This document shows positions 528-63,637 of a DNA stretch of 64,000 bases, in pieces. The stretch comes from Squalus acanthias (lineage: Eukaryota). How positions within the stretch are numbered: position 1 is the stretch's first letter; each line of letters opens with the position of its first letter. The position numbers and the translations under genes were made by a program. The stretch lies in contig CM059441.1 in NCBI GenBank assembly GCA_030390025.1, forward strand, positions 20,646,001 through 20,710,000, in the 5' to 3' direction. The notes beneath the pieces are model-generated. The model did no database searches. It saw only the letters and a program-made list of their open reading frames with translations, and was not told where the DNA came from.

Positions 528-1079
528 TAAGATGACTGTTTTTCAATGCTTATTGTAGCTCCGTGCTCAAACCTCTGGTATCTCGGCTAAGGGAAAGTAG
601 GGGGTTAGCGGAGTCCTTAAGGTAAAACTGAGCAGAATATATCTATCTGGTTTATAAGATATTTTATTCCCATGCATCTGATATGGTGAATACTTTGTTC
701 TGTATTAATTTCTGCACTGTTTAGCCAGCTGCATTTTTGCTATGCTTTGCTCGGTGAAATATTGTACCTAATTGCTGTTTTTCAGTTCAGTTCATATTTG
801 AGCAATGCAGGAAAACCTCAACATTGGAAGTACAATTTCATCTTTTAATTCCAAGAATATTGTGGGCCGAGAAATGTACTGTGCTCCGCTGCATTTCTTT
901 ATCTTCATTTACCACCAGACTGTAACTACAAGTAATTTTTGCAGATATCACATGAAAGAAAAGGAGGATGTATTTCAAAAACTAAATTAACTTTTTTTTA
1001 GTAATGAAAGAGTTTTTTTTTAAAAATGCATTTGCTTTGTTCCTTGCCAATTTTTGTCCTATGGTTTATATGGGTGTTT

Positions 1080-1405
1080 GTGCTCACTCAACTAATCATT
1101 TGAGCCTTGAAGGTGAGGGTCAGCAGGCAGTTTGACCAACTGGGGAATGAAAGCCAAAGGTGACCTTTTCCTCATCTAAATTCAGCACCCTCGTATTTCC
1201 CGTAGGAATCACCGGATATCAATCCAGCTGATTTTTTTTCCCCTTCTCTAGCCCAGCATAGCTAGGCCAATTCTAGTGCTCCAACAGGGACAAACCCGAG
1301 ATCAGCTAACCCCGCACAAACCCAGGAATCAAACCTAGGATCTTCTGGTCTGTATGGCTCAATATCACGCTGGGTGGAGCACCTACACACTGAGCCATCG
1401 GGAGT
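1080..1405 (-). mobile_element. Old tRNA-derived SINE; related fragments near 1560-1770, 2120-2370 and 11110-11200
   Basis: A-box-like TGGCTCAGTG and B-box-like GGTTTGATTCC on the - strand; family not firmly identified. Confidence 0.5.
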
Positions 1406-1789
1406 GCTAAGTAAATCTTTTATAAATTATGTGACCACCAATTTAACATAGAGAAGACCGTTGAAGCAAATAAGGCAGCTCCAAGATGTGCTTCAACCTC
1501 AGATAGAATACTCTGCTTCGGCTCGCTACCTAATCGAGAAGCTAGGACAATCTCCGTCTCTAATTTTAATCTTTTGGATGAGGTACGAGAGTGGGTGGGG
1601 GAGAGCGGGTGTCTACTGGCATCTGTAGAGGTCAGAAGCAAACTGAGCCCCATTTCTCCCGCCCCCCCCCCCCCCCCCATGCTGAAAAAGGACAAATTAG
1701 GCTTCCCTCATGATTCAGTGAGTAGCTGACTAGCCATGATAGTCCCAGATTCAATTCCCTGATTATGTTGTTAGCTATGAGGGGCCTAG

Positions 1790-2119
1790 ATAGTGGATAG
1801 GAAGGACCTCGTTCCCTTAGTAGAGAGATCAATAACCAGGGGGCATAGATTTAAAGTAGAAGGATTAGAGGGGAGCTGAGGAGAACTTTTTTCACCCAGA
1901 GGGTGGTGGGGGTCTGGAGCTCACTGCCTGAAAGGGTGGTAGAGGCAGAATCCCGCATCACATTTAAAAAGTACTTGGATATGCACTTGAAGTGCCGTAA
2001 CCTACAAAGCTACGGACCAAGATCAGGAAAGTAGGATTCGGCTGGATAGCTCTTTTTTTAGCCGGCACAGACACGATGGGTCAAATGGCCTCCTTCTGTG
2101 CCGTGGACTTCTATGATTC
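1790..2119 (+). mobile_element. CR1-type LINE 3' fragment; similar tails at 17-190, 13440-13612 (-) and 16478-16706 (-)
   Basis: Degenerate RT C-terminus (FFTQRVVGVWSSLP-like) and ...aatggcctccttctgtg tail. Confidence 0.8.
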
Positions 2120-2415
2120 TCAGCCACTGCAGCGTCCCGGGTCCGGGAGGAAAAACAATCATCGAGGGTTCCTGCTCTTGATCACTATCCAGTGACCACT
2201 GCTGATCACAGGATTGTGCTCCACAGGGGCCCCTCATACAGCTGATTTCATTGGTAACATGAGTAATGGTCACTTGGACTATGTGCTCGAGGCAACTGGC
2301 ACTAGCACATTGTGAAATTGTACCCCAGTAGAATTAGTGACTTCAGGAGGAAAGGAGAGATACCTGGCAAGGAGAAAATAAGTTTAAAAAAAAACCAAAA
2401 TGACTAATTTGCAGA

Positions 2416-2613
2416 AAATGCTGGAAACACTCAGCAGGCCAGGCAGCATCCGTGGAGAGAGAAACAAAGTTAACGTTTCAGGTCTGGGACCTTCCATCAG
2501 AACTGAAACGTTAACTCTGTTTCGCTCTCCACAGATGCTGCCTGGCCTGCTGAGTGTCCCCAGCATTTTCTGTTGTTGTTTCAGATTTCCAGCATCTGCA
2601 GTATTTTGCTTAT
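2416..2613. mobile_element. Short Penelope-derived fold-back insertion with a 15-bp TSD
   Basis: TGACTAATTTGCAGA at 2401-2415 and 2614-2628; internal inverted arms; mutated hammerhead core CTGATGG on -. Confidence 0.75.
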
Positions 2614-2702
2614 TGACTAATTTGCAGATATTTTTAGTGAGCTCCAAATTATGTAACAAAATGGCTTAATCCTATGGTGATATCGAACCAATGATTCAGT
2701 AG

Positions 2703-2915
2703 TGAGAAGTCGCACAACACCAGGTTATAGTCCAACAGTTTTATTTGAAATCACAAGCTTTCGGAGCGCTGCTCCTTCGTCAGGTGAAGAAGGAGCAGCA
2801 GCTCTGAAAGCTTGTGATTTCAAATAAAACTGTTGGACTATAACCTGGTGTTGTGCGACTTCTCACTTTTGTCCACCCCAGTCCAACACCGGCATCTCCG
2901 CATCATGGCCACTAT
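2703..2915. mobile_element. Short Penelope-derived fold-back insertion (second family) with a 14-bp TSD
   Basis: CAATGATTCAGTAG at 2689-2702 and 2916-2929; ~60-bp inverted arms at 2701-2762 and 2806-2867. Confidence 0.78.
2751..2787 (-). ncRNA. Minimal hammerhead ribozyme motif
   Basis: UCAC-CUGACGA-A-GGAGC-agc-GCUCC-GAAAGCUU-GUGA: stems I and II, conserved core, palindromic stem III. Confidence 0.65.
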
Positions 2916-3070
2916 CAATGATTCAGTAGATCGAGGGGAAAAAAATTACATTGAAGATCTTCCAAATTTTTGTGCAGTTAACTGATAAATAATCCGTGGT
3001 CCATTTGCGATGTCTAATCAATCAACTTAATTTGGTTGAAGAACATATAACTCCTGGTAATGCATGCGAA

Positions 3071-3760
3071 TCACAGAAAGTTAACATGCAGGTACAGCAA
3101 GCAATTAGGAAGGCAAATGGTATTTTAGCCTTTATTGCAAGGGGGGTTGGGGTATAAGAGTAAGGAAGTCTTGCTGCAGTTATATAGGGCCTTGGTGAGA
3201 TCACACCTGGAGTACTGTGTACAGTTTTGGTCTCCTTACCTAAGGAAGAATATACTTGCCATAGAGGGGGTGCAATGAGGTTCACTAGATTGATTCCTCA
3301 GATGAAAAGGCTGCCCTATGAGGAGAGATTGAGTAGAATGGGACTATATTCTCTGGAGTTTAGAAGAATGAGTGGTCTCTTTGAAACGTATAAATGTCTT
3401 AGAGGGCTTGACGGGTAGATGCTGAGAGGCTATTTCCCCTGGCTGGAGAGTCTAGAACTAGGGGTCAAAGACTCAGGATAAGGGGTCGGCCACTTAGGAC
3501 TGAGATGAGATGAGAAATTTCTTCACTCTGAGGCTTGTGAATCTTTGGAATTCTATACCCCAGAGGGCTGTGGATGCTCAGTCAACGAATATATTCAAGA
3601 CTGAGATCGATAGATTTTTGAGCACTAAGGGAATCAAAGGACATGGGGCTAGGCCGGGAAAGTGGAGTTGATGTAGAAGTTAAGCCATGATCTTATTGAA
3701 TGGCGGAGCAGGCTCGATGGGCCGTATGGCCTACTCTTGCTCCTATTTCTTGTGTTCTTA
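3071..3760 (+). mobile_element. CR1/HER1-type LINE 3' fragment
   Basis: RFTRLIP...YEERLSRMGLYSLEFRRM peptide and characteristic 3' tail. Confidence 0.9.
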
Positions 3761-3953
3761 CGCTGCCCAATAATATTCAACCCACCTGCCAGAATTGACT
3801 AGAGGCATAACTATCTGGACCTCAACCTAAATAGACTTTGGAAACCAGCAGACCATGGGTTAACACTAGCAGAAAAGGTAAGGTTTATCACTTTGTGAGT
3901 TAGTGCAATGAGAGTCTTCAATGTGCTTTGATAAAACAGATGAGCCCCGTTAA

Positions 3954-4136
<183 letters not shown>

Positions 4137-4558
4137 TAGTTACAGCGTGGATAATGTCTTAATTAGCAGCCCAGTCTACCTAATGCGATGGCAAACATTG
4201 CTCTGGAAGTGAGGTATGGGATGGGGAAAGGCGAAGTTGTGGAATGCTGAAAAAATGTCCTAAAGATATATTTAAAAAAAAAATGAAATAGTGGCAGAGG
4301 TGAGTTAAATATTATCTTAATTTACTGAACGTTCTGTTTAGATGCTGATTTGGGAGCACCCCTATATTTGACTCCAGGGGGTTTAAATAAAATTGGGTTT
4401 TTGGTGTCAGTTCAGTGAAACCCTTTCAGTGAATATTTAATTTAGTCCAAAAGCGCAGGTATCAAACGGGACATTTGAAGAACCGTGGATTTATTGCATT
4501 TTGGTTTTTGTTTCCCCTCTTAAATTAAGTTTTCTTCTGTTTTGTTACCGGAATCAAG

Positions 4559-5157
4559 GGGACAATTTTAACCTTAAAAAACAGGTGGGTTGGGAGCGTG
4601 GGGGTAGTTAAATTGTTAAAAATGAGTTTCCTGACCTGAATCCACCTCCAACTCGCCCATTTCCGGTTTTAACGGAAGCGGGGCAGCGACCAACCCGCTC
4701 CCAGGAGGCGGGACGTCAATTTAAATATAATGAAGCTGAAAGCCTTTTTTTTTAAACCTCCATTTTGTTTTTAACTGCATGTGGACAGGTTTTACACAAT
4801 TCGTAAAACCCGGCAGTTACAGCAAGCTGGGGACTGCTGGATCCAGGAGGTAAGTGCCTTTTATACCTACCTCCTGGATCCAGGGTCCCTGCCTAACCTA
4901 CTCATCTCCCCAACCCTCCCCCTGATCCTTTCAACAGCACAGCCCAATCCCTCCCTCCTCTGTCTGGCCTAGTGCCGGAGGCATGCCCGCAGCCAGCCAG
5001 TGCCTCAAGCTGGCTGGCTGCGGGCGGGAAATTGAGGCCTCGCATGCAAATCGGGCCCTGCCGTTAAAGTCGTCAAGGCCTGCGAGAAACCCGGCCTCCC
5101 GGTTTTCCCGACCGCTTCGGAGCCCCCAACCCGCTCTCCTCCTTAAAATCAAGCCCC
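4559..5157. mobile_element. Non-autonomous DNA transposon (Harbinger-like MITE); same family as 46504-47489 and the truncated 27900-28160
   Basis: Imperfect GGG..AATTTT / AAAAT..CCCC termini, AAG on both sides, shared internal sequence. Confidence 0.65.
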
Positions 5158-5333
5158 AAGTGTCCAATGATGAGGCCAAACTTACCTATTAATGATTCTG
5201 ATATAACGATCACAGAGCTGCTGAATGATGTCCCCCGTAACCTGCTGTGAATGAACAGTCTTGTATATTATTAGCAGTGATGCATTTTATAAATTGCTTT
5301 TCAGTTTGCATTTCAAGTAGTGTATGGCTGTAG

Positions 5334-5552
<219 letters not shown>

Positions 5553-10245: not shown

Positions 10246-10795
10246 TGCACTCCTGGCTGGCCTCCCACGTTCTACCCTATGAAAACTTGAGGTCATCCAA
10301 AACTCGGCTGCCTGTGTCCTAACTCGCACCAAGTCCCGTTCACCCATCACCCCTGTGCTCGCTGACCTACATTGGCTCCTGGTTAAGCAAAGCCTCGATT
10401 TCAAAATTCTCATCCTTGTTTTCAAATCCCTCCATGGCCTCGCCCCTTCCTATCTCTGTAATCTCCTTCAGCCCCACAACCCCCTGAGATATCTGCGCTC
10501 CTCTAATTCTGCCCTCTTGAGCATCCCTGATTATAATCGTTCAACCACTGGTGGCCGTGCCTTCTGTTGCCTAGGCCCCGAGCTCTGGAATTCCCAGCCT
10601 AAACCTCTCCGCCTCGCTACCTCTCTTTCCTCCTTTAAGACACTCCTTAAAACCTACCCCTTTGACAAAGCTTTTGGTCACCTGCCCTAATTTATCCTTA
10701 TGTGGCTTGGTGTCAAATTTTTTGTCTTATCCTGTGAAGCGCCTTGGGACATTTTACTACATTAAAGGCGCTAAATAAATATAAGTTGTTGTTAT
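10246..10795 (+). mobile_element. L2-type LINE 3' fragment; others at 23843-24183 (-) and 37945-38165 (+)
   Basis: ORF 10355..10690 LADLHWLLVKQ..FKILILVFKSLHGLAPSYL; (TTG)n-like tail. Confidence 0.88.
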
Positions 10796-18939: not shown

Positions 18940-19310
18940 TGTGCCCCCTTAAAGGGGCACAACCAATAAAACTGTAACTTAAACAAAATTTAAAGGAAAA
19001 TTAACAAATTAAATCAAAATTCTGTTTGGGGGTGGGGTGATGAAGCACTCCCGTCCCTCCTATGCCCACCGGCAGAAGGCCTCAAGCGAGCCACTGGACA
19101 CAGCTTGCTCTATCTCCAGGGACACCCAGGCACGAATATAGCAGAAGAGAGGCAGGCAGTCGGGCCAAATGACTCCCTCGACCACTTGTTGCCTGGACCT
19201 GTTATTGGCCACCTTGGCCAGTCCCATGAGGAGGTCCTCTGACTTGGCCGCTCCCCTCCGCACCAGGTGACCAAAAATCAGGAGCATGGGACTGAAATGC
19301 AGCCAAAAAT
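18940..19310 (-). mobile_element. Tx1-type LINE ORF2 C-terminal fragment; another at 33620-33810 (+)
   Basis: CLPLFCYIRAWVSLEIEQAVSSGSLEAFCRW and HVRARVALEMEHAVSAGTLEAFRDQW. Confidence 0.72.
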
Positions 19311-22134
19311 TGAGCTACAGGTCTAACATATATTTGTAATACTATTTACCTACAGAAGTGATAGTAATTCACTTCAGATAACTCACTGGACATAAAGTGC
19401 TTTGGGATATTTTGGGAGACCTAAGGCACTATATAAATGCAAGTTTAATGTTCTAAAAAAGTTACTAAATTTGTTTAAGAAGCAATTAACTTTGTTCTTT
19501 CCTCCCCAAATCATCTTATCATGTTTACACTTAAAATAGTTTTGCTCTCCCGCCCATGGAGAATTTGCAGTATTTATTCTTCCCTTCTCGAAACTATTGT
19601 ATCAGTTATTTTACATGGATGTAAAAGTTTTATTTTTCCCTATACGGTGGATTTGTAGTCCAATATTAAAGTTTAGAAGCATCTAGCCAGCACAAACATC
19701 CATGGTCTGAAAGCGCCTCATCCCTCATAACACTGGAGAGCTCAGATTTTATTTCTTGACCTATATGCAATGTTTAAAAAAAAATCCTATTTTAATTATT
19801 TTTTCACCCCTCAATTGCTATTTGTAAATGTTCTGTCTGGTGGGCATGTGATATGGGTCATGTTGTACCTTCGGTAGTGTAGTTCCATGAGAGCATCCTT
19901 CTCCCACCCATCTTCTCACCATGTCCCTTAAGATTTTAGAGAGAGAAGGGATTTTATCAGCTGTGTTCCATCCTTGAGCCAACAGAGTACAAAGCAAACT
20001 TATTCCCAAGCCTTTTCCAATACCAACTTTGACCCAGTCACTAGGAGTGTTGGCTACTGTCCCCTGCCCATTCTTTTCCCCTGCAGCAAAAGCTTGCTGT
20101 CTTCTCCTCAAGGCTTGGTACGTTGGGAAATCATAGGTGTGAACCAATGCCTAACTGCTCTGTGACGCCATGTCATGCAACTCTGAATATTGAGCCACTA
20201 TCAAGGCTGTTGCACCAACAGGAAGGAGTGAAATGGCCATGAGCAGCCTGCCTCCATTCTAGAGGGTGTTTTTCTAATCATAGTAAGATCATTTTAAACC
20301 AAGCACTTGCATGCTTATAGAACAAATAGCATGAAAAGTGAAGAATGTTCCTCATACTAGAAAGTAATGGTGAAAAGTGAACTAGAAACCACCACAGTAA
20401 ATAGATTCAGAGAGACTTGATATCATTTCATGGGAAGGAAGGGTAAATGATACCCCATCCATTGCTATTTCTATCCTCGCCAAGATCCAAAGACCCAACG
20501 TTCTCGAGTTTCTGAATAGCTCCAAGGAGGGCAGTATAATTCAAAGAGATCCTACTACAGGTGGAGTGTACTTGTGGATCATTTAGTGGGCGAGGTGCTT
20601 GTTCCTCTGAACTAATACAGGCTATCACCTGGCTATTTTCAGCCAGTTCCTCTGTCACAGAAGGAAGGCTTAGCTGGAATTGGAAAGGCTCCCATGGCCT
20701 TGACTGACTTGATAAACCACTTTGACAACCTTCTTCCAGAAGCTTCCCAGTCTAGGACATAGTCTAGTTCAATAAAATCCTATCATGTATAAAGTTAAGT
20801 GAGAACAAAACAGTGCAAAAAATAGTTTATTTAAAAAAATATTTACACAAAGTATAACATATCAAAATAATAGTAGACTATTCAACTCGATCATTTGCAT
20901 GACCAAAACTAAAGTTCTTTTTTTTTTGCATGGGGTTATATCTGATTAAATGAAATTGGATATCTTGAAGACATAAGAAAAGCCCATTGAATCAGATCCC
21001 ACTAGCACCCTAACCATTGCCAATTACCTAATTTATTTCTTTATATCTTGCTCAGCAGTTTGTTCCAAACACCATTTTGAGTGAAGATACTAATGATATC
21101 TGTTCCAAATGTACTTTTAATCAATTTAAATTTGTGTCTTTTGACCCTATTCTCCTGATTTACTTTAAAGTAATGGTCTGGGTTTAACTTATCTATACCG
21201 TTTAAAATACCAGGTTCTTTTTTTATACATGGATGGAGTTCCCCCAACCCCATTAAATGCTTTTCTTATCTACAGATATCTTTAAATAATTGCGTTGCTT
21301 TTAAAACATCACAAAATAAGATTGGAAAGAAGCATTCAACTAGAACACAAAAGCATTACTTTCTCTGCTATTTTGATGTGTTTCACTATATACAAGCCCA
21401 TCTTTTTCCCTATTGCGCCCCCCCCCCCCCCCCCCCCATTTTCTGAAGAAGTAGAGCCCCACAGTCCTCTGGTGAGTTGAGACACCGACTATCATCCCCC
21501 TCCAATAACACAGATACAGTCCTCTTGAGCATTCAGCCTCTCCCTCCCAACTCAAACAGCCAAAGACAGGATAATTCAACAAAATCAGATTCCAAGCACA
21601 ATCAATCCAGTTTTTATTTTTCAATATGGTCAAAGTAATGATAGGAAATTTTAAAAGTCTAAAACAGAAGATACTGGAAATACACAGAAGGCGAGGCTTC
21701 AACTGATCGTCCAACCTGGAGAGACTCAAGGTCACCCGCACCATGGAGAGCTGAAGGCAGGTTGGTTAACCTTTAGATGCAACCCTTTGATGAGGTTCAA
21801 GGGTGAAGGGATGTGATGAAAAGGAAGGTAGGTGAGGTAGATCAATGAAAAATAGGTGGCTTATTAGTCCTAATGGCCATTTCCTTTTCTTAGAAGTTCT
21901 TGTACTGTTATGCTGAGCCTGCTCAAAAAACTAGGATTAAAATCAGATGGGACGTGGGAAACTCTAAAATCCCCCCCCCCCCCCCTCAAACTGCAACTCC
22001 ATCTCTCTCCCTGTCCTTTACACTTCAGGGAGCTCTTCAGATTCCTGTGGTCATTTTGCTTTGTCTCACGGTTGTATGTTGTGATTGAATTTTCTATTGC
22101 CAATTCTTTTTTGTTCCTAATATTGTGGTTTCAG

Positions 22135-33270: not shown

Positions 33271-34199
33271 CTTTATTGCACATGTCCGATTTCACCATCA
33301 TCCCCCCCCCGCCGCCCCCCCCCCCCCCCCCCCCCCCCATTCGGGCCTAAATTCATTCCTTCCCGAAGCCGGGTGCGATCTGTGCAACAGGCAGAACGGA
33401 GAGGCCCCAGGGCCTTCCTAAATTAGGGGGAGGGGGGAAGGAGGCGATCGAGGGTGGGCGGAGGGTGAGTGCTGGGTCGACAGCGGTTTGCAGTCTTGAT
33501 GTGGCGGCAGGAGGAACACTCCAGCAGGCCTCTTCCAAGGCCTCCAGCGGCCCCGCTGGTTCGTGCCACTGCAGAGCCTGAAAAAAGTAGTCGGAGCTTG
33601 CGGTAACGCATCCACCAACCTGTGCCACGTTCGCGCCCGGGTGGCCCTGGAGATGGAGCACGCGGTGTCCGCCGGCACGCTCGAGGCCTTCCGCGACCAG
33701 TGGGCACCGCAGGGACTGGAGTGCATCGTCATCCCGGCAATCGAATTTTAATTTCATTTGTTAAGTTTCATTTGATGTATTTTTGTTAAGTTACAGTTTT
33801 TGTTTATTGATCACACCAAAAGAGTAACCGCCAACTTGTTTTAACCAATTGTGCAAACGGATGCGGAAATGGGTCGCAGGAGGCTCGTTTCAATATTGAG
33901 GCCATTGTCGCCTTATAAAAGGCCCCAAGAATTGAGCAGTGGCCTGGACACATGTGGAGATTAGGGTTATTTTACTATGGAGACACAAAGGCTTGGATGC
34001 AATATGATTTAAGGTTTGTAAAATGTTGAGGGGGAGTGATACTATCTGTTTAGATAGGTTAATGGAAATGGATAGGGATGTTAGGGCAAGAGCTCATTAC
34101 TTGATCCCCAAGCATTCCTAGTGTGTCCTGCACTGCGCACAGGGAGCCCATGAGCTCATATTATGGCCCATACAGCCCTTGAAGAGCAGCAGTCCTGGT

Positions 34200-34475: not shown

Positions 34476-34528
34476 TCACTGCGCCCAGATCACTTTATCA
34501 GCCCTATTACCTTCCAAAAAATTCTTAC

Positions 34529-34852
34529 CTGTGAAAACCTTTAGTAATATAACATCTGAAATAATGAGAGATTTTATATATTGAGTTCCACAAAAGTATG
34601 TTCCTGTATCTCTCTCCTGAAGCTGTGTTATGGTAACAGCAATTAACCCATTGTCATTAGTGATTGATGCTCTTTTATAATTTTTGAGCACATATCCGTC
34701 AGTGTTCACTATAATATCGCACGTTTGTTTGGAAGTTGCTTTACACCAGCTTATTACACGGTTTCTTTGGTTCGCTGCCTGCGGACATTCCACAGTGACT
34801 GTTTCTCCCACTGCAGCTTTCACCACCGTTGATGCAATTTGTGTCCACAAAC
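34529..34852 (-). CDS. Gene A exon 2, IgV domain D1 (VTVEC...SWCKATSKQTC...DTGTYFC)
   Basis: ORF 34476..34850; B/F-strand Cys pair plus the CD300/pIgR-type C-x7-C second disulfide; ccaacag/gtaag; 324 nt, phase 1-1. Confidence 0.92.
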
Positions 34853-34971
34853 CTGTTGGCGAAACTTAACGTCAGAAAGTTTAAAGTATCGCCACAATCA
34901 ATATTACTCAGCACTTCTGGCAGAACACAAATAACATGGGGACAAAAAACAAATCCTGGATGGGACTGGAA

Positions 34972-49345: not shown

Positions 49346-49400
49346 GTATTTTAAATACGGTTGCTCTTGATTTTTAATTTTTGTATTGGACTGAACTTAC

Positions 49401-49516
49401 CACTTTTCTTCGGCTGTTTTATTTTTACGCAAAGAATAACAGCAGCAACGAGCAGTAGGAAGATGATCACCACGACTACTGAAAGAATGACATGCCACGG
49501 AAACGCACCTTGCTTA
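49401..49516 (-). CDS. Gene B exon 4, transmembrane KQGAFPWHVILSVVVVIIFLLLVAAVILCVKIKQPKKS
   Basis: tttgcag/gtaag; phase 2-1; no Lys/Arg/Asp/Glu in the hydrophobic core. Confidence 0.88.
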
Positions 49517-50615
49517 CTGCAAAATACAAGTGAGATATATGGAGCATGAGATAGGCAGAGCTGAGGTAATTACACAACAAGAACAACTTTATTCCTCACC
49601 AGTCTTGTTCATTGTGTTTCAATCTGATCACGTATAAATGAGAAATACATTTTAAAGTTGCTATATCTGTAAAAAAAAGACTTACATTTCTATAGCGCCT
49701 TTCACGACCACCAGACGTCCCAAAGCGCTTTACAGCCAATGAAGTACTTTTTGAAGTGTAGTCACTGTTGTAATGTAGGAAACATGGCAGCCACTTTGCA
49801 CACAGCAAGCTCCCACAAACAACAAAGTGATAATGACCAGATAATCTGTTTTTTAGTGATGTTGGTTGAGGGATAAATATTGGCCAGGACACCTCTTCAA
49901 AATAGTGCCATGGGATTTTTTACGTCCATCTGAGAGAGCAGACTCGGTTTAACGTCTGATCCGAAAGATGCAATCTCCTCAGCACTGCACTGGTGTGTTA
50001 GCCTAGATTTTTGTGCTCAAGTCCCTGGGGTGAGACTTGAACCCACGGTTTTCTGACTCAGAGTTGAGAGTGCTACCCACTTTTTTAAATATATTATTTA
50101 TTGAACATTAAAAACATTTACAACATCGTGATCATTCCATTGTATCATACAAATCCATTCCGCCGCTCTGCACAGCCATTCCTCCACCACATATTAACAT
50201 CAAAACCTGAAATGTAATTTGTCTCCCATAACATATACTAATCTATTGTACTTTAAAAATTGATCAGTAATCATGGCTCCGAAGAAGGGAAGTGTGCCTG
50301 ATAATCCCCCCATCATTTAATCTCCAGCCTATCCCTCCTCTCATGCTCCTTCCCAACTTTTCGGCCAGCTGTTGCTTTCTCCTGCCGTCTCCGGCTCTTT
50401 TTCACCTCCTGTTTGAATCTTCCCTGCAGTTTCAGCCTCTTCCTTACATTAGGTTTGGGCTAAGGAGCTGCCCCTTCTCCCTCCTTCTGCCCCTCACTAA
50501 CCTTTCCCTTTCCACATGATGCCACCTCACCCCCCACTTCCCTGTCTCTGTCCCCCACTGAATCCTCGCTCTCGAGCTCTTCTGTAACCTCCTGTTCCTG
50601 CTCCCCGTCAGATAT

Positions 50616-51430
50616 GGGCTGGATTTTGTCTTGGGGTCGGGTTGGGGTCGTGTTATCCGCATTTCGTGTTCCCCCCCCGACTCCAGATTAATGTGGATGA
50701 ATGATGCAATTTTCACTTAATTGGGCAATTGAGTTCCAGCATGTGGGAACCCATGAACCAATTAGTGGTTTCAGTCTGAAAGTCGCCTCTGATGATGTCA
50801 TCATTGCTGCTGCATTGCAGGTCAGAGACTGACTGCCTGGCTGTTGGTGAGAGAGGACCTGGATGCAAAATAGAGAGATATAGNNNNNNNNNNNNNNNNN
50901 NNNNNNNNNNNNNNNNNNNNNNNNNNNNNNNNNNNNNNNNNNNNNNNNNNNNNNNNNNNNNNNNNNNNNNNNNNNNNNNNNNNNNNNNNNNNNNNNNNNN
51001 NNNNNNNNNNNNNNNNNNNNNNNNNNNNNNNNTCACAGCAAAGGCCATGCAGTCTCCATCAGAGGCGACTTTCAGATCTAATACTACTACCTGCATCACA
51101 TCTCCATTGTAATAGTGGACCTGCAGCTGATAGTCAGCTATCCACTTGTGCTCCCGCCAGGTTTCACTGGAGTGTTTCACATCAGGCGTACTTCATGTCG
51201 GAAAAGGGTTAAACTAGCTAAAACGTTTCAAAATGGCATTACAGAGCCAATTTAGGCTTGTTAAGGGCTTTAATGGCCTCTCCCGCCTCTTGGAGGTGAG
51301 TCGGGAACCCCGCGACTGATTTTGTCCAAATTGCGTGGAGTCGGGATGGGGTCGGGACCCCCGACCCCGCAAATTTAACCACCCCACACACCTCCAAACC
51401 CGACTCCATGGGTCATTCAAAATCCAGCCC
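50616..51430. mobile_element. DNA-transposon MITE nested in the ORF1 tail; encloses the assembly gap
   Basis: Perfect 13-bp TIRs GGGCTGGATTTTG / CAAAATCCAGCCC. Confidence 0.75.
50884..51032. other. Assembly gap (149 N)
   Basis: Run of N. Confidence 1.
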
Positions 51431-52002
51431 ATAATCTCCCTTAGAGAGTCTTCCTGCTATCACGGTTTCTCCAACAGTGCCACTCCCTTCGGCCTCATCT
51501 CCACCGCTGACCCTTGCTCCCCGTTTCTTCTCTCTCTGAGACAATGGCGCATCTGCACCTATTTTGCCCCCTTCTGGCGTCTCCCCGTTCCTGTCCTGCT
51601 GCCCCTTTAAGGCTCCTGCCTCTTGCACCCTCTCCTTGTCTTGCCCCCTCCTGCTCCCCGAGATGTCCAACTCCCCGTCTTTCTTTGGAATACTTACACT
51701 TGCCCCGCACCCGCTCCCACCTCCTCTCCCCCCGCGGACACCACATTCTTTAGGGAGAGCCGAGCCGTATTATGGCTCGACTTGTGCTGCCCGCTGCTGT
51801 CTTTGTCCTTTTTCACCGTACTTGGTGTGTTTTCCACCATCTGCATCCTGTTCTCTGATCTGCAATTTTCTGCCTATTCCTCCGCTCTTTTCTCCTTCCA
51901 TTCGCCAGCTGTGTCCTCTGCCTGCTCTGCCCCTCCAACCGCTCCACTCACACCTCCTGCTCCTTCTCATTCTCTCATCTCCTCCACCCATCTTCTCATC
52001 AC

Positions 52003-52707
52003 TCAAGGAGCTTTCTCTGCCTCACACTCACAGCGGGTGGGGCCTTTGTGACACGCCCCACAGCTCTCCGCCTTGCAGCTCTGAGCGATGTGTCCAGACT
52101 CGCCGCAGTTATAACAGTACAAGTCTGGACAGCTTCTTACAAGATGGTCGTGTCCAAGACAATAATAACAAACTTTCACCTGGTTATCATGCAGTACCCG
52201 GAAGTACTGCACTCCTTCCATTGTCTCGAATTTCATGCTATACAGCAATAACTTCACCCCCTCTGGGAACCGTACCTTTACATAACGGGTTCCATCTGCT
52301 ACCCGCGTTCCTGGATAGTATCTCCTCTTTATTGCCGAGCAAATTTTAATGTCCCACGACTCCAACTTTTTTATTAGCACATCATCCTCAATATAAACCG
52401 GCAGGTTTAAGAATGAGACCATCACCTCGTCAGAACATAGCAGAGATACCTCCAAGAACTTATCTCCAACCTTCAAACTGAGTAAAAGTCTTTCCACCTC
52501 CTCCCGGCCACTGGCCGTCACCTCGAACCCAACATTTGGCTTTGGTCGGCAGGCAAAGCAGCTTCCCTCGCCGCAGTCCTCATGTACCGCCTGGATAATA
52601 TCCCAAGCTCGTATCTCCTTATCCTCACACTGAACCACCACCATGTTTTTCTTTCCAAACCTCCTGGGGTCCCTTCCCCCAACATTTTCTTCCCTGATTA
52701 AATTCAT
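52003..52707 (-). CDS. Tx1-type ORF1p (ZCCHC3-like): RRM-like region plus CCHC knuckles CYYCLGHDHLVRSC and CYNCGESGHIAQSC
   Basis: ORF track 52003..52782; likely start MNLIREEN at 52707; motifs VSFLNLPVYIED and GTRVADGTRYVKVRFP. Confidence 0.85.
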   Translation of the reverse strand: MNLIREENVGGRDPRRFGKKNMVVVQCEDKEIRAWDIIQAVHEDCGEGSCFACRPKPNVGFEVTASGREEVERLLLSLKVGDKFLEVSLLCSDEVMVSFLNLPVYIEDDVLIKKLESWDIKICSAIKRRYYPGTRVADGTRYVKVRFPEGVKLLLYSMKFETMEGVQYFRVLHDNQVKVCYYCLGHDHLVRSCPDLYCYNCGESGHIAQSCKAESCGACHKGPTRCECEAEKAP

Positions 52708-54384
52708 CTTGGGAACATTGTCCTCTGAGGGGCTGCTGTTTAAGGACCAAAAAGGCCCTAAAACCTGAAAAAAAAACACCAACTTTTTACAAACTCACTC
52801 CAACTCCCTGCAGTAATCAAGCACCCAGCAGCACCTGCTCACTCCTAGCCCCTCCCATCTAGAGAGTGCTAACACTGAGCCACGGCTGACACTGTAGTAC
52901 TAAATGGGGTATGAAATCAGCAAACACTCTTTGTAGCAATATTTAAGGAAACACGATGGCCTTGGAATTACACTGCGCAAAGATTAGTGTGTGAACATTT
53001 AATGTGTCCCTACTAAATTCCTTTTTCTGCTATATTAACGGAGGCTTATTAAAAGCAAATGAACGCTTCTGTTAAAATAGGAATTTAATATAAATGGGTT
53101 AAATGTTTGTTAATCTGCTGACATCCTGGATCCAAGTAATTAGACCTTGTGATGGTCACAGTCGAAGTATGCAGCTTGGCTCAGTTGTTAGCACCTTTGC
53201 CTCTGAGTTAGAAGATTGTGAATTCAAGCCTCTCTGCAGTGCTCAGAGGTGCTTCCTTTTGGAGAAAAGGCCCTGTCTGCCTACTTATGTGGATGTCAAA
53301 GATCTCATAGCAGAACAGGGAGCAGGCAGTTCTTCTCATGTGCTGATCGACATTCATCCCTTCAGAGGATGGGAATTAATATGGATTCAGAAGGAGCAGA
53401 TCTCGCATGGCCAACCTCCTTGATGTCTTTGAGGAAACAACATCCCAGATGGACTGCGGTAAGCCCCTGAGCTGATGTTTAGACGTTTTCTGTCTTGAGG
53501 GATATGCTGGCATTGTCAAACTAGGTTTTTATTTTAGACTTTTTGAATAAAAGAGGGTTTTGCTACCTCAGGACATGTTGCAGAATGCTGTTAGTCTTGG
53601 CAGCATAGGGTGACACCTCTATTCCTGTCCAGAATGGAGATGATTGGGTAATTCTCCCATCAATGATGCTTGGAGCCCACGCTGCTGTAAGTGACTGGGA
53701 TTGATTTTACGCACATGAGTTCCGCTTGTTGTAGTTGGTAGAGACTCTTTTTTAAATAGACTGGGTAAATAGCCTCTGTTTGCTTTGCTGTGTGCTTTGT
53801 TTGCTGTAAGTCAGTGGTATTAAAGGGACAGAGGTAACTTGCGTATGAAATTGGCTAAGGGATAGGAGGCAGAGAGTAGTGGGGAGTCGGGGTAAATTGG
53901 ACAGCTCTTTCAAAGAGCCGGCACAGACACGATGGGCCGAATGGCCTCCTCCTGCCAGAATGGAGATGATATGGTGGTGTTCTCCCATCGATCACGCCCG
54001 GAGACGGCACTGCTGTAAGTGACTGGGATTGATGTTACGCCTACCAACACTTGTTTTCCCATTTCCTGAACTATTCCACACCTACTGCCAAGGCCCCAGA
54101 GGAAGATTGAATGCTGAAGATGTCAGTGTAGCAAAGCCCCACTTCTGGTGTGCTCTGCAATAATTGCTCGCGGACTGCACCAGGAGAGGAAGATCAGCCC
54201 CTGGAGATCCTACAGAAATTAGGTGTGAGACATCTCAACATGGTACCGTGCAAAAGAACGGAGAAAAATGTAATGCTACACGTCTTACTTAGTCAGTCTC
54301 CTTAAAAAGAAAAGGTGCAGGTTCTCAGTAATCCTTGAAATCTGCTCTATCCAATGCAAAGTACCAAAGCCAAAAGGATTTTTT

Positions 54385-55203
54385 TTTAATATTCGTTCAT
54401 GGGATGTGGGCGTCGTTGGCAAGGCCAGCATTTATTGCCCATACCTAATTGCCCATGAGAAGGTGGTGGTGAGCCGCCTTCTTGAACTGCTGCTGTCCGT
54501 GTGGTGAGGGTACTCCCACAGTGCTGTTAGGGAGGGAGTTCCAGGATTTTGACCCAGCGACGATGAAGGAACGGTGATATATTTCCAAGTCAGGATGGTG
54601 TGTGACTTGGAGGGGAACTTGGAGGTGATGGTGTTCCCATGCACCTGCTGCCCTTGTCCATCTATGGTGGTAGAGGTCACGGGTTTGGGAGGCGCTGTCG
54701 AAGAAGCCTTGGCGAGTTGCTGCAGTGCATCTTGTAGATGGTACACACTGCAGCCACGGTGCGCTGGTGGTGGAGGGAGTGAATGTTTAAGGTGGTGGAT
54801 GGGATGCCAATCAAGCGGGCTGCTTTGTCTTGGATGGTGTCGAGCTTCTTGAGTGTTGTTGGAGCTGCACTCATCCAGGCAAGTGGAGAGTATTCCATCA
54901 CACTCCTGACTTGTGCCTTGTAGATGGTGGAAAAGCTTTGGGGAGTCAGGAGGTGAGACACTCGCCGCAGAATACCTAGCCTCTGACATGCTCTTGTTGC
55001 CACAGTATTTATGTGGCTGGTCCAGTTAAGTTTCTGGTCAAAGGTGACCCCCAGGATGTTGATGGTGGGGGATTTGGCGATGGTAATGCCGCTGAATGTC
55101 AAAGGGAGATGGTTAGACGCTCGCTTTTTGGAGATAATCATTGTCTGGCACTTGTGTGGCGCGAATGTTACCTGCCACTTATCAGCCCAAGCCTGAATGT
55201 CGT
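54385..55203 (-). mobile_element. CR1-group LINE RT C-terminal fragment (second family)
   Basis: ORF 54677..55303 WADKWQVTFAPHKCQ...LGVTFDQKLNW...YKAQVRSVMEY. Confidence 0.88.
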
Positions 55204-55393
55204 CTATTGAATAGAATCTATGAATAGGATCTATTATAAGTTTCACCAAAGATTGCCAAGGATAGTAAAGCTCCATATTGTATTTGTCCCTCCGGTTCAG
55301 CATTTTAAAAAAGCATCTGTGAGCTATTCACAGAACACGTTCATACTTATGGTAAAGATGCACAATATTGATTTCGACCTATGAGAGACTAAC

Positions 55394-55520: not shown

Positions 55521-56181
55521 CTGAACACTTCATCACTGAAAGCAGTTGTTGCATACAGTTTACGCCTCTTAATTGAGGTACTTAAATAATCTGATCAATC
55601 AATATTTTTAGCACTAAATTCCCACTTTGTATTGTTTGTGTTGCTTAATTCAATTGATTAGATCATTCCATTATTTTTTAAGGGCAAAAATTGACTGAAT
55701 TAGCAGGGCTAGACTGTGGCACAAAAAGATGAAATCAGAGGCAACTATAACAAAATACATGACGAGTGAATTTGACCTTTTGGTGGCTACTGGGTGCATA
55801 AAAGGTGCTGATTTTCCTCCTCTTGTGTGAGTTGGCGGAGGTTCTGATCTCAGAGCGATCGATGGAAGTTGGGGAAGTGACACACCAACAGCAGAACAGC
55901 TGGCAGCTAAAAACTTTCAGGAGGGACATTTTTTACAAGTCCGTTTCCCTCACCCACCTCCCTCTCCCTTCCTGATGGAGTGGCAAGATATTGCTCTGGA
56001 AATCCAGTGTCCCCATGGGCTGGGCACCCCAGTAAATGGGTGCTCACCCCTTTTATGCAAATGAACCTGCCCCCGGGACTTGGCACAGAGTCACTGTCAG
56101 AGCAGACGGGTGGGAATTTCTGGGCTCAAATGCTTAAATTTGGCCAGAATGAACTAAATAGAAATACAATTGTGTTCTTAC

Positions 56182-56505
56182 CTTCAGAAACTTCCAATTT
56201 GATTAAAAACTTTTCATTTTGTTGAAATAGTGACCGTTTTATCACACACCAGTACCATCCTTCATCATGTTTCATTAGGGGATCCACGGTGACTGAAAAT
56301 ATCCCTTGTGTTTTTTTATCAGTCAGTGACACTCTGACTTGTTCTGGTTGATCAGTAGAAACCACAACAGAACAGAAATGGTAAGTAAAACCTTTACACC
56401 ACTGTTTAACATTGTCCTTGTAACGCAGATTATACCGACAGTCCACAGTGACCGATCCTCCCAATTCTGCGTAAACCTTCGCGGGTCCAGATAATTGACA
56501 CGAAC
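56182..56505 (-). CDS. Gene B exon 2, IgV domain (GGSVTVDCRY...KQWCKGFTYHFC...DEGWYWC)
   Basis: ORF 56126..56515; classic CD300/pIgR motifs; ccaacag/gtaag; 324 nt. Confidence 0.93.
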
Positions 56506-56929
56506 CTGTTGGCATATTAATGATGAAAGGTTATTGATTATTGTATCAGAATCAACATAAACAGCACTTAACCAAATAAACACTGTTTGCAATTATAGAT
56601 TAAATTCCATTTTTAATATCGCATTCCTTGTGCTGATTCTCATATCACCAACATTGTTACTCAAATTACTGCATACACGCAGTTTTTGGGCCTGATTTTC
56701 CCAATATATGATTTCCTGTTGTGAGCAGGTTGCGAGGCCAGATTCCCTGCTGGTTGTGCATTCTGAGAAAATTATCCCTGTCATCATTGTAGATCGATAT
56801 TCTTTATTTACACTGATCATCGCTATTAAGTGAAACTAAAAAGCTTGCTAAAAAACCTAATTCTTTCATTCTTTCTAACAGGTTCTCTCAGTTGGCCCAT
56901 TTCTAAACCCAGTTATTTTATTTAACTTT

Positions 56930-58540
56930 CTACAGGAACAGAGAAACATTAGGAACAGGTGTAGGCCATTTACCCGCCTTAGCTCCATATCCCTCGATAC
57001 CCTTACTTAACAAAAATCTATCGATCTCGGTCTTGAAAGCTCCAATTGTACCAGCAACCACAGCCTTTTGGGGGAGAGTGTTAAAAATTTCTATTGTCTG
57101 TTGTGTGAAAAAGTGCCTCCTTATTTTGCTCCTGATAGGCCTAGCTTTAATTTTAAGATTCTGTCCCCTTGTTCTTGATTCCTCCACCAGAGGAGATAGT
57201 TTCTTCGTATCTACCCTATCAAATCCTTTTAACATTTTAAACACCTCGATCAGATAAGAACATAAGAACATAAGAAATAGGAGCAGGAGTAGGCCAATCA
57301 GCCCCTCGAGCCTGCTCCGCCATTCAATAAGATCATGGCTGATCTGATCCTAACCGCCAATCTACTATCTATCACAGAACCATCTCCTGCATCTAACAGA
57401 ATTGCACACACGAAATAGGAGCAGAATCAGGCTACACAGTCCCTGGGCCCGCTCCACTACCCACAGGGCCATGACCGATCCGAACCTAGACTCATGTCCA
57501 AATTCCTGCCCGCTCCCCGTAACCCTTAATGCCCTTTACTTCTAGGAAACCTATCAATCTCCAACGCTCTAGGGAATACAAGCCAAGTTTACGCAACCTG
57601 TCCTTGTAATTTAACCCTCTGGTATTGTAAGATAGAACGTACCTGTAGGATTTAGTAAACATTATTAAGATTTTAAACCATTATAAAATATCTATAATGT
57701 ATGACAATGTGTGTTAAAAACCTGAAGCCTGTATAAAATGGCAAACGGCTGAGAAGCATAGCATGATGGTAAGTAATGCCAACTTGATGTAATTCTGTAG
57801 AATGGTCTGTTAAGTAAACAAGGAGTTAGTGGGGAACAAGAAATTCAGCAACATTGCAAAAGAAGATAGGGGGATGGAGACAGTCACCACTCCCTGTCTT
57901 CTCAAAAATGCAGAATCGGCTAAACAATGAGCTGATTAAAAAGCAAAAAGACATCTGTGAGAATTTAGTGTGAAGGTTGTTCTCAGATAAGGATAGCTTG
58001 CTTACTAACTGCCACGTAGGCAAAAGGGAGAAAAAGGGGTATAAAAATACAGATATTGAACTCTGAAAGCAGCGCGACACCAGAGGACGAGAAGCTTCAG
58101 TCAACAGAACACAGCAAGTGTTAAAGAGACCGCGCCACAGTCACCCGGAAGGAACGCCGGGGTTTCGAGGAACAGACTGCGACTATCATCTTGTTAAGTA
58201 TTACTTCTTTGTACTGGATGTAAGATACTTGATAAACCTGTTTTACTTATACACAATATACCTGTACCCGGAGTGGTTTGTTATGGTCATGGACAAATTA
58301 ATCTAAAGAGCATTTGACAAGATAACAGTATCATTCTGGTGAATCTACGCTGCAACCCCTCCAACGCTAATATATCCTTCCTGAGGTGCGGGGCCCTAAA
58401 CTGAATGTGGTCTGACCAAAGCTCTGTAATACTGAAGTATAACTTCTTCCCCTTTGTAATACCCTTGAGATAAAGACCAACATTCAATTAGCCTTTTTGA
58501 TTGCTTTTTGTACCTGTCTTCTGGCTTTTAATGATCTGCT
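56930..58540 (-). mobile_element. Stacked CR1 3' fragments interrupted by a solo LTR
   Basis: ORFs 56930..57271 and 58287..58487 carry CR1 peptides. Confidence 0.8.
57626..58327 (+). mobile_element. Solo LTR (702 bp; ERV or Gypsy type)
   Basis: TGTAA...TAACA ends; GTAT TSD at 57622-57625 and 58328-58331; TATAAAA at 58040-58046; host CR1 continuous across it. Confidence 0.8.
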
Positions 58541-62125: not shown

Positions 62126-63114
62126 TGACCACTGACTCCCGTTAATGCCTCCAAATTCATTCTGTCACCCACAAGGCGTTGCCCCAAGCAGCCTATGGAA
62201 TAGCTGAAATATGTACCTTTCAGATATTTCCAGCTTATTTTAAAAGGCTAACAGAATTTGTGTCCCCAATAGTGACCACTTACCTTTAAGTGCCAACTCC
62301 TTTAATTTTTGCAGAGCCCTTTAAGGATGTTGGTGAAGCTATTTCCCACCCTGTCCTTTAGGTGTACTGCCCTTGGCAGGCCCAGTATGGCCTGCGAGCT
62401 TGCTTAGCTTTCTAATTAGAACTAATCTTGGGAAACCTCACAGAAAATCTACACGGTAGTTGGAACAATGTCATGTCAGGTGTCAACAACATGTCTAAAA
62501 AAGCTTGAATGTTTATTTGATAATTTTGCATTTGCTGAATAACCGTTGTAATGAGGCTCCAGAATCTATTGTATTACACGCATTGCTTTGTTCCTGTGGC
62601 GTCGCTGGAGGGAAGTACATGAGGTGAGCAGCAGCGTAACAAGAGTAAAGACAGAGTGATAGACAAGTGTGAGGTCATTTTTATTTTCAGCGTCCTTTCA
62701 GAGGCTGATTTACTTGGATTGTAACATTCTAGGCAACGTCTAACTGAAAAACTGACTTCTTGCATCTCAGCTTCCTGTTTCAGGCCCAGGCCTTGTACTT
62801 CACAATCTCCTGACTGACTACCCATGTGTCTTTCGTTCTCCTTTTCTCTTTGTGTTCCCAGTAAGTGGGAGGGTTTTCTCTCTGACTTCGCCCCCATTTA
62901 ATGATTTGCCAGTCAATAAAACAGGCTACTGATCAATTCTCCTCTCTTGGAATATGGGTTTAAGGAAACCATTTCCTGCTCTTCTCAAATAAATAGTGGC
63001 CCTCCTCACTTAATGAGCCTGGAGGTAGTCAACTGACCCTCATTGTCTCAGTTTAAAGTCGACTATGAGTGACTACATCCCACAAACTGGCTTATCAAGC
63101 TTTAATACATATTT

Positions 63115-63637
63115 TCGATAGGAAGGATGTTCTTGCCATGGAGGGTGTGCAGCGAAGATTCACCAGACTGATACCTGGGATGGCAGGAATGATGTATGAG
63201 GAGAGGTTGGGTCGATTGGGCTTATACTCGCTGGAGTTTAGTAGAATGAGAGGAGATCTCATTGAAACTTATAAAATTCTAACAGGGCTAGACAGACTGG
63301 ATGCAGGAAGGATGTTCCCGATGGCGGGTGAGTCCAGAACAAGAGGTCACAGTCTAAAGATAAGGGGTAAGCCATTTAGGACAGAGATGAGGAGGAATTT
63401 CTTCACCCAGAGAGTGGTGAACCTGTGGAATTCTCTACCACAGAAGGCAGTTGAGGCCAAGTCAGTAAATATATTCAAGAAGGAGTTAGATATATTTCTT
63501 AAGGCTAAAGGTATCAAGGGATATGGGGAGAAAGAGGGACAGGGTACTGAGTTTGAATGATCAGCCATGATCTCATCGAATGGCGGAGCAGGCTCGAGGG
63601 GCCGAATGGCCTACTCCTGCTCCTATCTTCTATGTTT
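63115..63637 (+). mobile_element. Young CR1/HER1-type LINE 3' fragment (open frame)
   Basis: ORF 63069..63560 plus 3' tail. Confidence 0.92.

Follow-up and report, generated by a model that had tools for sequence, protein, structure and literature searches.

The stretch of DNA analysed here (the window) comprises 64,000 nucleotides (nts) of the Squalus acanthias genome (assembly GCA_030390025.1, contig CM059441.1, positions 20,646,001 to 20,710,000 of the forward strand). On its minus strand, positions 52861 to 50081 hold a decayed, dead copy of a ~2.0-kb retroelement family of several hundred copies, which carries only the first open reading frame (ORF1) of a long interspersed element (LINE) and is inserted into the head of a short interspersed element (SINE). 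A first-pass annotation had proposed an ORF1-only, multi-copy, non-autonomous family derived from a Tx1 LINE, and searches covering the 3.7-Gb genome, whose repeats resemble those of cartilaginous fishes, bear this out. The family very probably arose by one in-frame deletion of ~3.8 kb in the ORF2 of a parent LINE of the same genome, and likely spread with the ORF2 protein of that parent.

The ~150-nt 5′ untranslated region (UTR), ORF1, the acidic then basic tail ending at 50313, the AATAAA and the poly(A) of the annotation are all present on the minus strand (Table 1). In the window copy, the ORF1 core has suffered a 30-nt in-frame loss near its start, and its stop at 52003 is caused by a frameshift. 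The core contains CCHC knuckles, recognised by Pfam (zf-CCHC, E=2.2e-06), and two predicted RNA recognition motifs (RRMs). An AlphaFold model of the core, built on a 17-row alignment (mean pLDDT 77.9), has its structural matches among proteins with tandem RRMs (Foldseek E=3.8e-05 at best; by VIA-align, Z 9.6 and rmsd 2.1 across 73 residues), and the earlier label of an RRM-like ORF1 with CCHC knuckles holds as a prediction. Downstream, 17 N-terminal codons of ORF2 are fused in frame to 21 C-terminal codons at 50267/50266, which is the deletion junction that defines the family. The statement that no endonuclease or reverse transcriptase (RT) sequence is visible is correct for the domains, but overlooked these residual codons. 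The window copy lies at a distance of 0.038 from the column majority of the family alignment.

Table 1. Parts of the element copy, its nested insertion and its target SINE in the window
Feature	Positions	Strand	Basis
5′ remnant of target SINE head (SINE start to first part of A-box-like motif)	52876..52892	-	sequence comparison
5′ copy of apparent target duplication (14 nts here, 15 in most copies)	52862..52875	-	compared copies
5′ UTR (154 nts in this copy; common to 5.8-kb parent)	52708..52861	-	element start at 52861
ORF1 core (234 codons still open; first ATG at 52707)	52003..52707	-	ORF reading
ORF1 acidic low-complexity tail, first part (interrupted by frameshifts and stops)	51431..52002	-	ORF reading
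Secondary Harbinger-like miniature inverted-repeat transposable element (MITE) (perfect 16-nt inverted arms; 3-nt TAT duplication, right one damaged)	about 50613-51433 (MITE proper 50616..51430)		inverted-repeat and copy comparison
ORF1 tail, second part (acidic, then basic; ends at natural stop TGA 50315-50313, with one premature stop before it)	50313..50615	-	ORF reading
ORF2 remnant (38 codons; ATG overlaps ORF1 stop)	50200..50316	-	comparison with parent
3′ UTR (common to parent; AATAAA 50102-50097; A6 tail 50086-50081)	50081..50199	-	sequence
3′ copy of duplicated target 15-mer, GTGGGTAGCACTCTC (runs on into SINE body)	50066..50080	-	sequence
Rest of target SINE (B-box-like motif, body, 3′ tail)	49672..50065	-	sequence comparison

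Origin of the ORF1-only family

With the 5′ 871 nts of the element as query, 1100 candidates were obtained, of which 40 were scored and 29 loci besides the window were taken. Eighteen of these end inside the fetched stretch, and 15 of the 18 measure 1.98-2.04 kb and lack ORF2, in agreement with the annotation, which had expected copies of about 2 kb without RT when collected by their 5′ and 3′ ends. A 3′-anchored search gave 29 other loci, each with the 3′ end joined directly to ORF1. Five of the first 29 loci continue past ORF1 into ORF2. At three loci (L061, L063 and L064), ORF1 is followed by ORF2 and then by the 3′ end of the short form, and long loci, where followed to their end, return to the same 3′ end and the same target. 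Pfam recognises Exo_endo_phos (1e-12), RVT_1 (1.4e-18) and zf-RVT (1.8e-06) in the ORF2 of this parent. An uninterrupted long copy measures 5809 nts, ~3.78 kb of which are missing from the short form, while the 5′ UTR, ORF1, the 3′ end and the target site are common to both. Copies with ORF2, which the annotation had named as evidence against its proposal, exist only in that there is a parent LINE.

The annotation had also pointed to parts of Tx1 ORF2 at 18940 and 33620 of the window as potential helpers. Neither has similarity to the ORF2 of the family or to eight database relatives, and they were rejected as helper candidates. The regions at about 18940-19314 (minus strand) and 33420-33760 (plus strand) are C-terminal scraps of another LINE ORF2 family, with no Pfam match.

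Genome-wide, exact 18-mers across the short junction occur 287 times and across the long junction 240 times, against 0 for reversed controls, which refutes a single internally deleted copy. The long 3′ border was found as 208 exact 20-mers and the 5′ junction as 290 exact 25-mers. Exact counts of this kind are lower bounds, and from the junction counts, at about 3.5% divergence, copy numbers of roughly 500 short and 400-450 long elements are estimated. Altogether 158 loci were examined. The border between ORF1 and ORF2 was readable in 134 of them, 68 being short with one identical junction and 66 containing ORF2, with no third class; many of the 158 loci were fetched by junction, and 68:66 is not a genomic ratio. 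The short junction is also bridged by contigs from sequencing runs of organisms A, B, C and D (3 studies), one of which may be the source species, and one contig shows the long border.

Long copies comprise a subfamily A (long-A), intermixed with the short copies in the ORF1 tree, and a ladder-like subfamily B (long-B). This intermixing, a TTA(C) near both breakpoints and one independent internally deleted copy, L186, speak for recurrent deletion, whereby each short copy would be a long copy that lost ORF2 after insertion or by splicing. However, all 68 short junctions belong to one class, and the deletion borders are not GT..AG, on which ground splicing was rejected as the origin of the deletion. 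Moreover, a private base 3′ of the junction, G1852, is present in 64/66 short copies and in 1/42 long copies (1/14 long-A, 0/28 long-B). Recurrent deletion is largely refuted, and only a very slight probability remains for it: the one junction and the private base show a single origin of the short form. The near-identity of ORF1 in short and long-A copies (1 synonymous and 0 non-synonymous fixed changes) and the distribution of G1852 indicate that ORF2 was lost once, in a long-A master copy, and that the short form then spread in a star-like burst. Mean distances to the column majority are 0.036 for short, 0.034 for long-A and 0.028 for long-B tips; the burst is about as old as subfamily A, and the parent lineage continued. 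L186 (G000:C4, 10.18 Mb) is itself a copy of ~0.9 kb in which nt 456 is joined to nt 5336, with both ends normal.

Selection on ORF1 was assessed within and between subfamilies. Singletons in the ORF1 of short copies give an omega of 1.02 in the core and 0.98 in the tail, and core variants present in at least 4 copies give 0.50 (11 synonymous, 18 non-synonymous, p=0.058). Hence the ORF1 of short copies decays neutrally, with no clear sign of selection. As a positive control, the ORF1 core of long-A versus long-B is under purifying selection (10 synonymous, 4 non-synonymous changes, p=0.0002); the ORF1 tail gives no purifying signal (5 synonymous, 17 non-synonymous). These results bear on the idea that the short form is not a parasite and would instead represent a domesticated or host-selected ORF1 gene family, akin to the restriction factor ZCCHC3. 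The architecture of RRM plus CCHC would suit such a role, and ZCCHC3 restricts L1 (PMC10351740), although neither 'Tx1' nor 'domesticat' occurs in the available text of that article. Against it stand the neutral decay with stops, the absence of an intact copy among 81, and a window copy that is broken and interrupted by a MITE, so that domestication has a slighter chance still than recurrent deletion.

Several observations weigh against a derivative spread by the ORF2 protein of its parent. Comparison of long-A with long-B gives no clear sign of purifying selection on ORF2 (7 synonymous, 15 non-synonymous). The whole ORF1 of 538 codons was found in none of 81 copies read from the ATG (longest, 485), and no whole ORF2 was found in the long loci scanned (longest piece, 484 codons); all copies examined are dead. 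Since there is no clear selection on the ORF1 of short copies, its retention may be a passenger effect. Finally, short copies within 3 Mb of each other share rare variants ten times more than other copies do (1.79 vs 0.18 per kb in 28 pairs), as in the pairs L103/L104, L029/L041, L020/L026, L028/L052, L021/L073 and L049/L070, each on one chromosome. Where flanks were compared, in the 8 top pairs, they are unrelated. Neighbouring SINE heads without an element likewise share rare variants. This sharing points to non-allelic gene conversion or local hopping, and because of it, conversion may have blurred both the ages and the test of the duplication described below.

The SINE target and the 5′ joint

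All 29 5′-anchored loci start right after a SINE head, and 28/29 3′-anchored loci run on into the SINE. The annotation had reported a target-site duplication; a near-repeat of ~15 nts is indeed present at both ends, but it lies inside the SINE head, and the fixed target had been missed. Of 88 3′ ends, 79 align to the target without a gap and 7 reach the SINE across an indel; a nested MITE interrupts the other 2. Conversely, 99 heads devoid of their SINE body were found in the 158 loci: 91 join the element, 90 at the element start and 1 with a small deletion, hence 90/91 head-element junctions are full-length joins. The site lies ~17-32 nts from the SINE start, and the uninterrupted (empty) head occurs at least 18740 times. 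The element targets one fixed site in the head of a putative tRNA-type SINE, and short, long-A and long-B copies all use it. On visual inspection the head contains A- and B-box-like motifs; ARAGORN, applied to 12 loci, did not call a tRNA there, nor did Rfam return one. By its resemblance, the target may be a SINE of the SacSINE1/Deu type, which has a Deu domain and an L2 tail. A SacSINE1-type SINE is described in sharks in the available part of PMC5499810.

A fixed site could be mere inheritance if one element-bearing SINE had been amplified as a unit by means of the L2-type tail of the SINE. SINE sequence does flank every copy on both sides, 68/110 SINE bodies extend to the SINE 3′ end, and, given the sharing of variants among neighbours, the SINE part could have become diverse afterwards through conversion. 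On the other hand, the SINE part is 2-4 times more diverged than the element, and the two are uncorrelated: pairwise distances are 0.049 for the element 3′ end and 0.228 for the adjoining SINE (n=41), and non-CpG deviations are 0.026 and 0.05-0.10, respectively. The targets fall in different SINE subfamilies, with linked markers up to 380 nts apart, the A-runs vary (mostly 5-10), and short, long-A and long-B copies are all at the same site. Nor is there an excess of 5′-truncated composites. Of seven short copies that appeared 5′-truncated and were extended, at least 6 are full-length with nested insertions. In 20 long loci picked as likely truncations, none joins the SINE head to internal sequence. 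Six have the normal 5′ start, and one more differs from it by a small deletion; in the other ~13 the fetched stretch contains no 5′ end, and some of these may be truncations that lost the head as well. Only a small chance is left to amplification of the composite. With a SINE part that has diverged further than the element and represents several subfamilies, the copies are best read as independent insertions into pre-existing SINEs.

The choice of target may itself be filtered. In the 3′ copy of the 15-mer, the common variant at position 6 is depleted (5/110, vs 25/100 empty heads counted by hand, p=2e-05), as a nuclease filter would give, which suggests one. Long-A and long-B endonucleases differ by 5 fixed non-synonymous and 0 synonymous changes, and one SINE subfamily is over-represented among the targets of long-B (20/26 with a base other than T at position 12); a shift of target preference is possible.

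The 5′ joint is uniform and full-length, and the duplicated 15-mer is unlike a simple copy of its target. A mismatch filter was passed by 82 5′ and 110 3′ ends, those with shifts or gaps being left out, and 57 loci were clean at either end. In these loci, positions 1-11 of the 15-mer deviate 40 times in the 5′ copy and 41 times in the 3′ copy, without one deviation in common. Random pairing gave 1.4 common deviations in an earlier set of 54 loci, and by our own estimate the duplication of existing target variants should have produced ~20. Moreover, the A allele at position 12 of the 3′ copy is linked to SINE body markers up to 380 nts away (Bonferroni p<0.01), yet the 5′ copy has T in 13/15 loci with this allele. 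Because the 5′ T persists where the 3′ A marks a SINE subfamily, the last four bases of the 5′ copy (TCTC in the window) are likely the element's own.

Two explanations, at about even odds, may account for this anomaly. One has nearly an even chance: an ordinary staggered nick would have duplicated 11-15 nts of a near-perfect target, and mutation hotspots together with non-allelic gene conversion would then have scrambled the copies. It agrees with the variable positions being the ones that also vary in empty heads, counted by hand in the first 100 of 18740, with a position-3 variant unlinked to body markers, with neighbours sharing variants, and with the precedent of gene conversion documented for Alu (PMC8230782, available part). 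It accounts poorly for the complete lack of shared deviations where roughly 20 are expected and for the persistent 5′ T opposite a subfamily marker, and the homology on the 5′ side is only 32 nts. The other explanation, held somewhat more tentatively, is a homology-guided joint as in R2. The RNA of the LINE and of its ORF1-only derivative would include part of a SINE head, acquired at the donor locus or through a jump to a SINE transcript, and the end of the cDNA would anneal to the site, giving an R2-like pseudo-duplication and precise, truncation-free insertion of up to 5.8 kb into a Pol III A-box. A donor origin is disfavoured by a 5′ copy that lacks clonality and varies at the same positions as empty heads, by a position-3 variant that shows no linkage to body markers, and by the sharing of rare variants among short copies within 3 Mb. 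The head variant CTG is enriched in long-B copies (17/24 vs 14/47, p=0.002), but can reflect the target subfamily and was set aside as a sign of donor inheritance. No ribozyme or special 5′ fold was detected: z-scores lie between -1.85 and +0.62, and Rfam gave no match worth crediting. T-runs at nts 89, 112 and 411 argue against Pol III as the source of the full-length RNA, and this option was rejected; the first T-run, in the 5′ UTR, would stop Pol III.

Nested MITEs and neighbouring features

The insertion that splits the ORF1 tail of the window copy has short terminal inverted repeats and a 3-nt TA-rich duplication, as PIF/Harbinger MITEs do, and by these rules we assign it, presumably correctly, to the Harbinger superfamily. 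The only N stretch of the window lies inside it, between its terminal inverted repeats as annotated. With 149 letters, the gap is far too short to hide ORF2, as had been anticipated. The annotation had the frame of the tail resuming across the MITE (GRLSKGD/ISDGEQE); the frame does continue, reading GDY-V-SDGE in uninterrupted copies, but that exact join is not original, the window copy having lost a few bases at the right edge of the MITE.

The TAT site in ORF1 is a hotspot, at which 14/110 copies carry different, independent Harbinger-like MITEs of 631-5400 nts including nesting (the window copy and L042, L049, L051, L052, L060, L069, L077, L088, L091, L095, L099, L117 and L140). They occur in short, long-A and long-B copies alike. 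A weaker hotspot lies near nt 470 of the element, and a 21-nt tandem duplication at the main hotspot in some long-B copies (L063, L143, L149, L158 and L167) is a lineage marker.

The element appears to lie in sense within an intron of an Ig V-set gene, two such genes being in tandem in the window. Ig V-set exons and a likely transmembrane exon are found at 56126-56530, 34476-34865 and 49351-49569 on the minus strand (Pfam 9.5e-12 and 1.6e-13), and we presume the genes to be CD300/pIgR-like. Fragments of CR1/L2-type LINE RT tails, which are abundant, were recognised by eye at 54432-55327, 56930-57349, 63069-63560 and 10283-10690.

Known systems, proposed mechanism and significance

The parent has an ORF2 with APE endonuclease, RT and a C-terminal zinc motif, features that are common to the L1 clade and not diagnostic alone. 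It further combines a type I ORF1 (RRM plus CCHC) in a non-mammalian animal with target-site specificity, which is common but not universal in Tx1. The best 120 of 1050 ORF2 relatives are 35-48% identical and have no clade names. The best PDB match of the parent endonuclease is 'LTX', which we take to be the L1 endonuclease with a Tx1L loop. By its architecture, the parent fits a Tx1-type LINE. Type I and type II ORF1 are defined in PMC5203782, which ties the RRM plus CCHC type to Tx1 in the part available.

In the available parts of PMC4494074, PMC5340908 and PMC3706591, Tx1L, Keno, Kibi, Koshi, Dewa, Mutsu and Tx1-Mar resemble the parent in having two ORFs, a length of about 5.5-6 kb and a fixed target in a multicopy small-RNA gene or transposon. 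Tx1-clade elements often target small-RNA genes or other transposons (PMC4494074, PMC5340908). For instance, Mutsu inserts ~20 nts into 5S genes, and Tx1-Mar mobilises non-autonomous partners to its own target. The window family differs in its target, the head of a putative tRNA-type SINE; neither such a target nor an ORF1-only partner is named for those elements in the same parts of these sources.

The short form has the marks of an ORF1-present bipartite non-autonomous LINE: it holds only ORF1, its endonuclease and RT domains are absent, its 5′ and 3′ parts come from one autonomous LINE, and it was amplified after the deletion. HeT-A, HAL1 and Ag-Sponge are such LINEs from the clades Jockey, L1 and CR1 (Kojima, PMC5786205; PMC5753468, available parts), likewise made of the 5′ part, ORF1 and 3′ end of an autonomous LINE via internal deletion, with no Tx1 case among those given in PMC5786205. 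The annotation had called the window element HAL1-like. A HAL1 in the strict sense, a mammalian derivative of L1, has an ORF1 of the vertebrate L1 type (Transposase_22); here Pfam gives zf-CCHC only, and the ORF1 is of the RRM plus CCHC type. In addition, HAL1 is not described as site-specific in the available parts of PMC5786205 and PMC5753468, whereas the window family has a fixed target, a near-identical parent and an exact breakpoint.

The closest functional precedent at hand is TRE5-A.2 of Dictyostelium (PMC3159450, available part), which lacks ORF2 and is mobilised in trans, ORF1 in cis raising activity about 200-fold and ORF1-less constructs retaining 0.5% activity. Like the window family, it keeps ORF1, has a large ORF2 deletion, coexists with its full-length parent and has Pol III/tRNA-type targets. 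Unlike TRE5-A, which lands ~50 bp upstream of tRNA genes via TFIIIB contact, the window family inserts at a fixed base inside the head of a SINE, in a vertebrate. Trans-mobilisation and ORF1 cis preference have been shown for TRE5-A.2 (PMC3159450). The family is the design of HAL1 and TRE5-A.2 in a Tx1-type, SINE-targeting lineage. As to the 5′ end, the uniform 5′ junctions of R2 are explained by upstream 28S sequence on the cDNA annealing to the site (PMC3774820, available part). R2 uses a restriction-like nuclease and an HDV-like ribozyme, neither of which was found in the window family, where the 5′ copy may have a donor origin.

From the 3′ end, target and age that it has in common with its parent, we infer that the short form was likely mobilised in trans by the parent ORF2 protein. 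A Pol II transcript of the short form would be coated by ORF1 protein made in cis, and the ~190 nts kept at the 3′ end would recruit the ORF2 protein in trans. The latter would nick one fixed site in the SINE head, and reverse transcription would be target-primed from the short A-tail at that site. For the 5′ joint, with about the same likelihood as an ordinary duplication, the true staggered duplication would be at most 11 nts, and an RNA 5′ end with target-like sequence would anneal to the site.

The parent, the junction, the counts and the duplication anomaly are newly established here. No Tx1 ORF1-only family or SINE-head target was found in the titles and abstract starts of the literature searched; Repbase, Dfam, subscription papers and supplements may hold one. 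With this family, a Tx1-type lineage joins the few LINE groups known to give ORF1-only derivatives, and the family is a derivative caught at birth, with a parent still nearly identical, an exact breakpoint and copies as numerous as those of the parent. It narrows the cis needs of the LINE RNA to about 190 nts of the 3′ end plus the 5′ part, and allows testing whether selection keeps ORF1, of which there is no clear sign here. A homology-guided 5′ joint, should it hold, would account for the scarcity of truncated copies and be relevant to site-specific insertion by means of APE-type elements. A Tx1-type element would then use an R2-like joining route at a dispensable site of which this vertebrate genome has tens of thousands of copies. 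By aiming at the promoter of a SINE, the LINE parasitises another parasite and likely disables each SINE that it hits.

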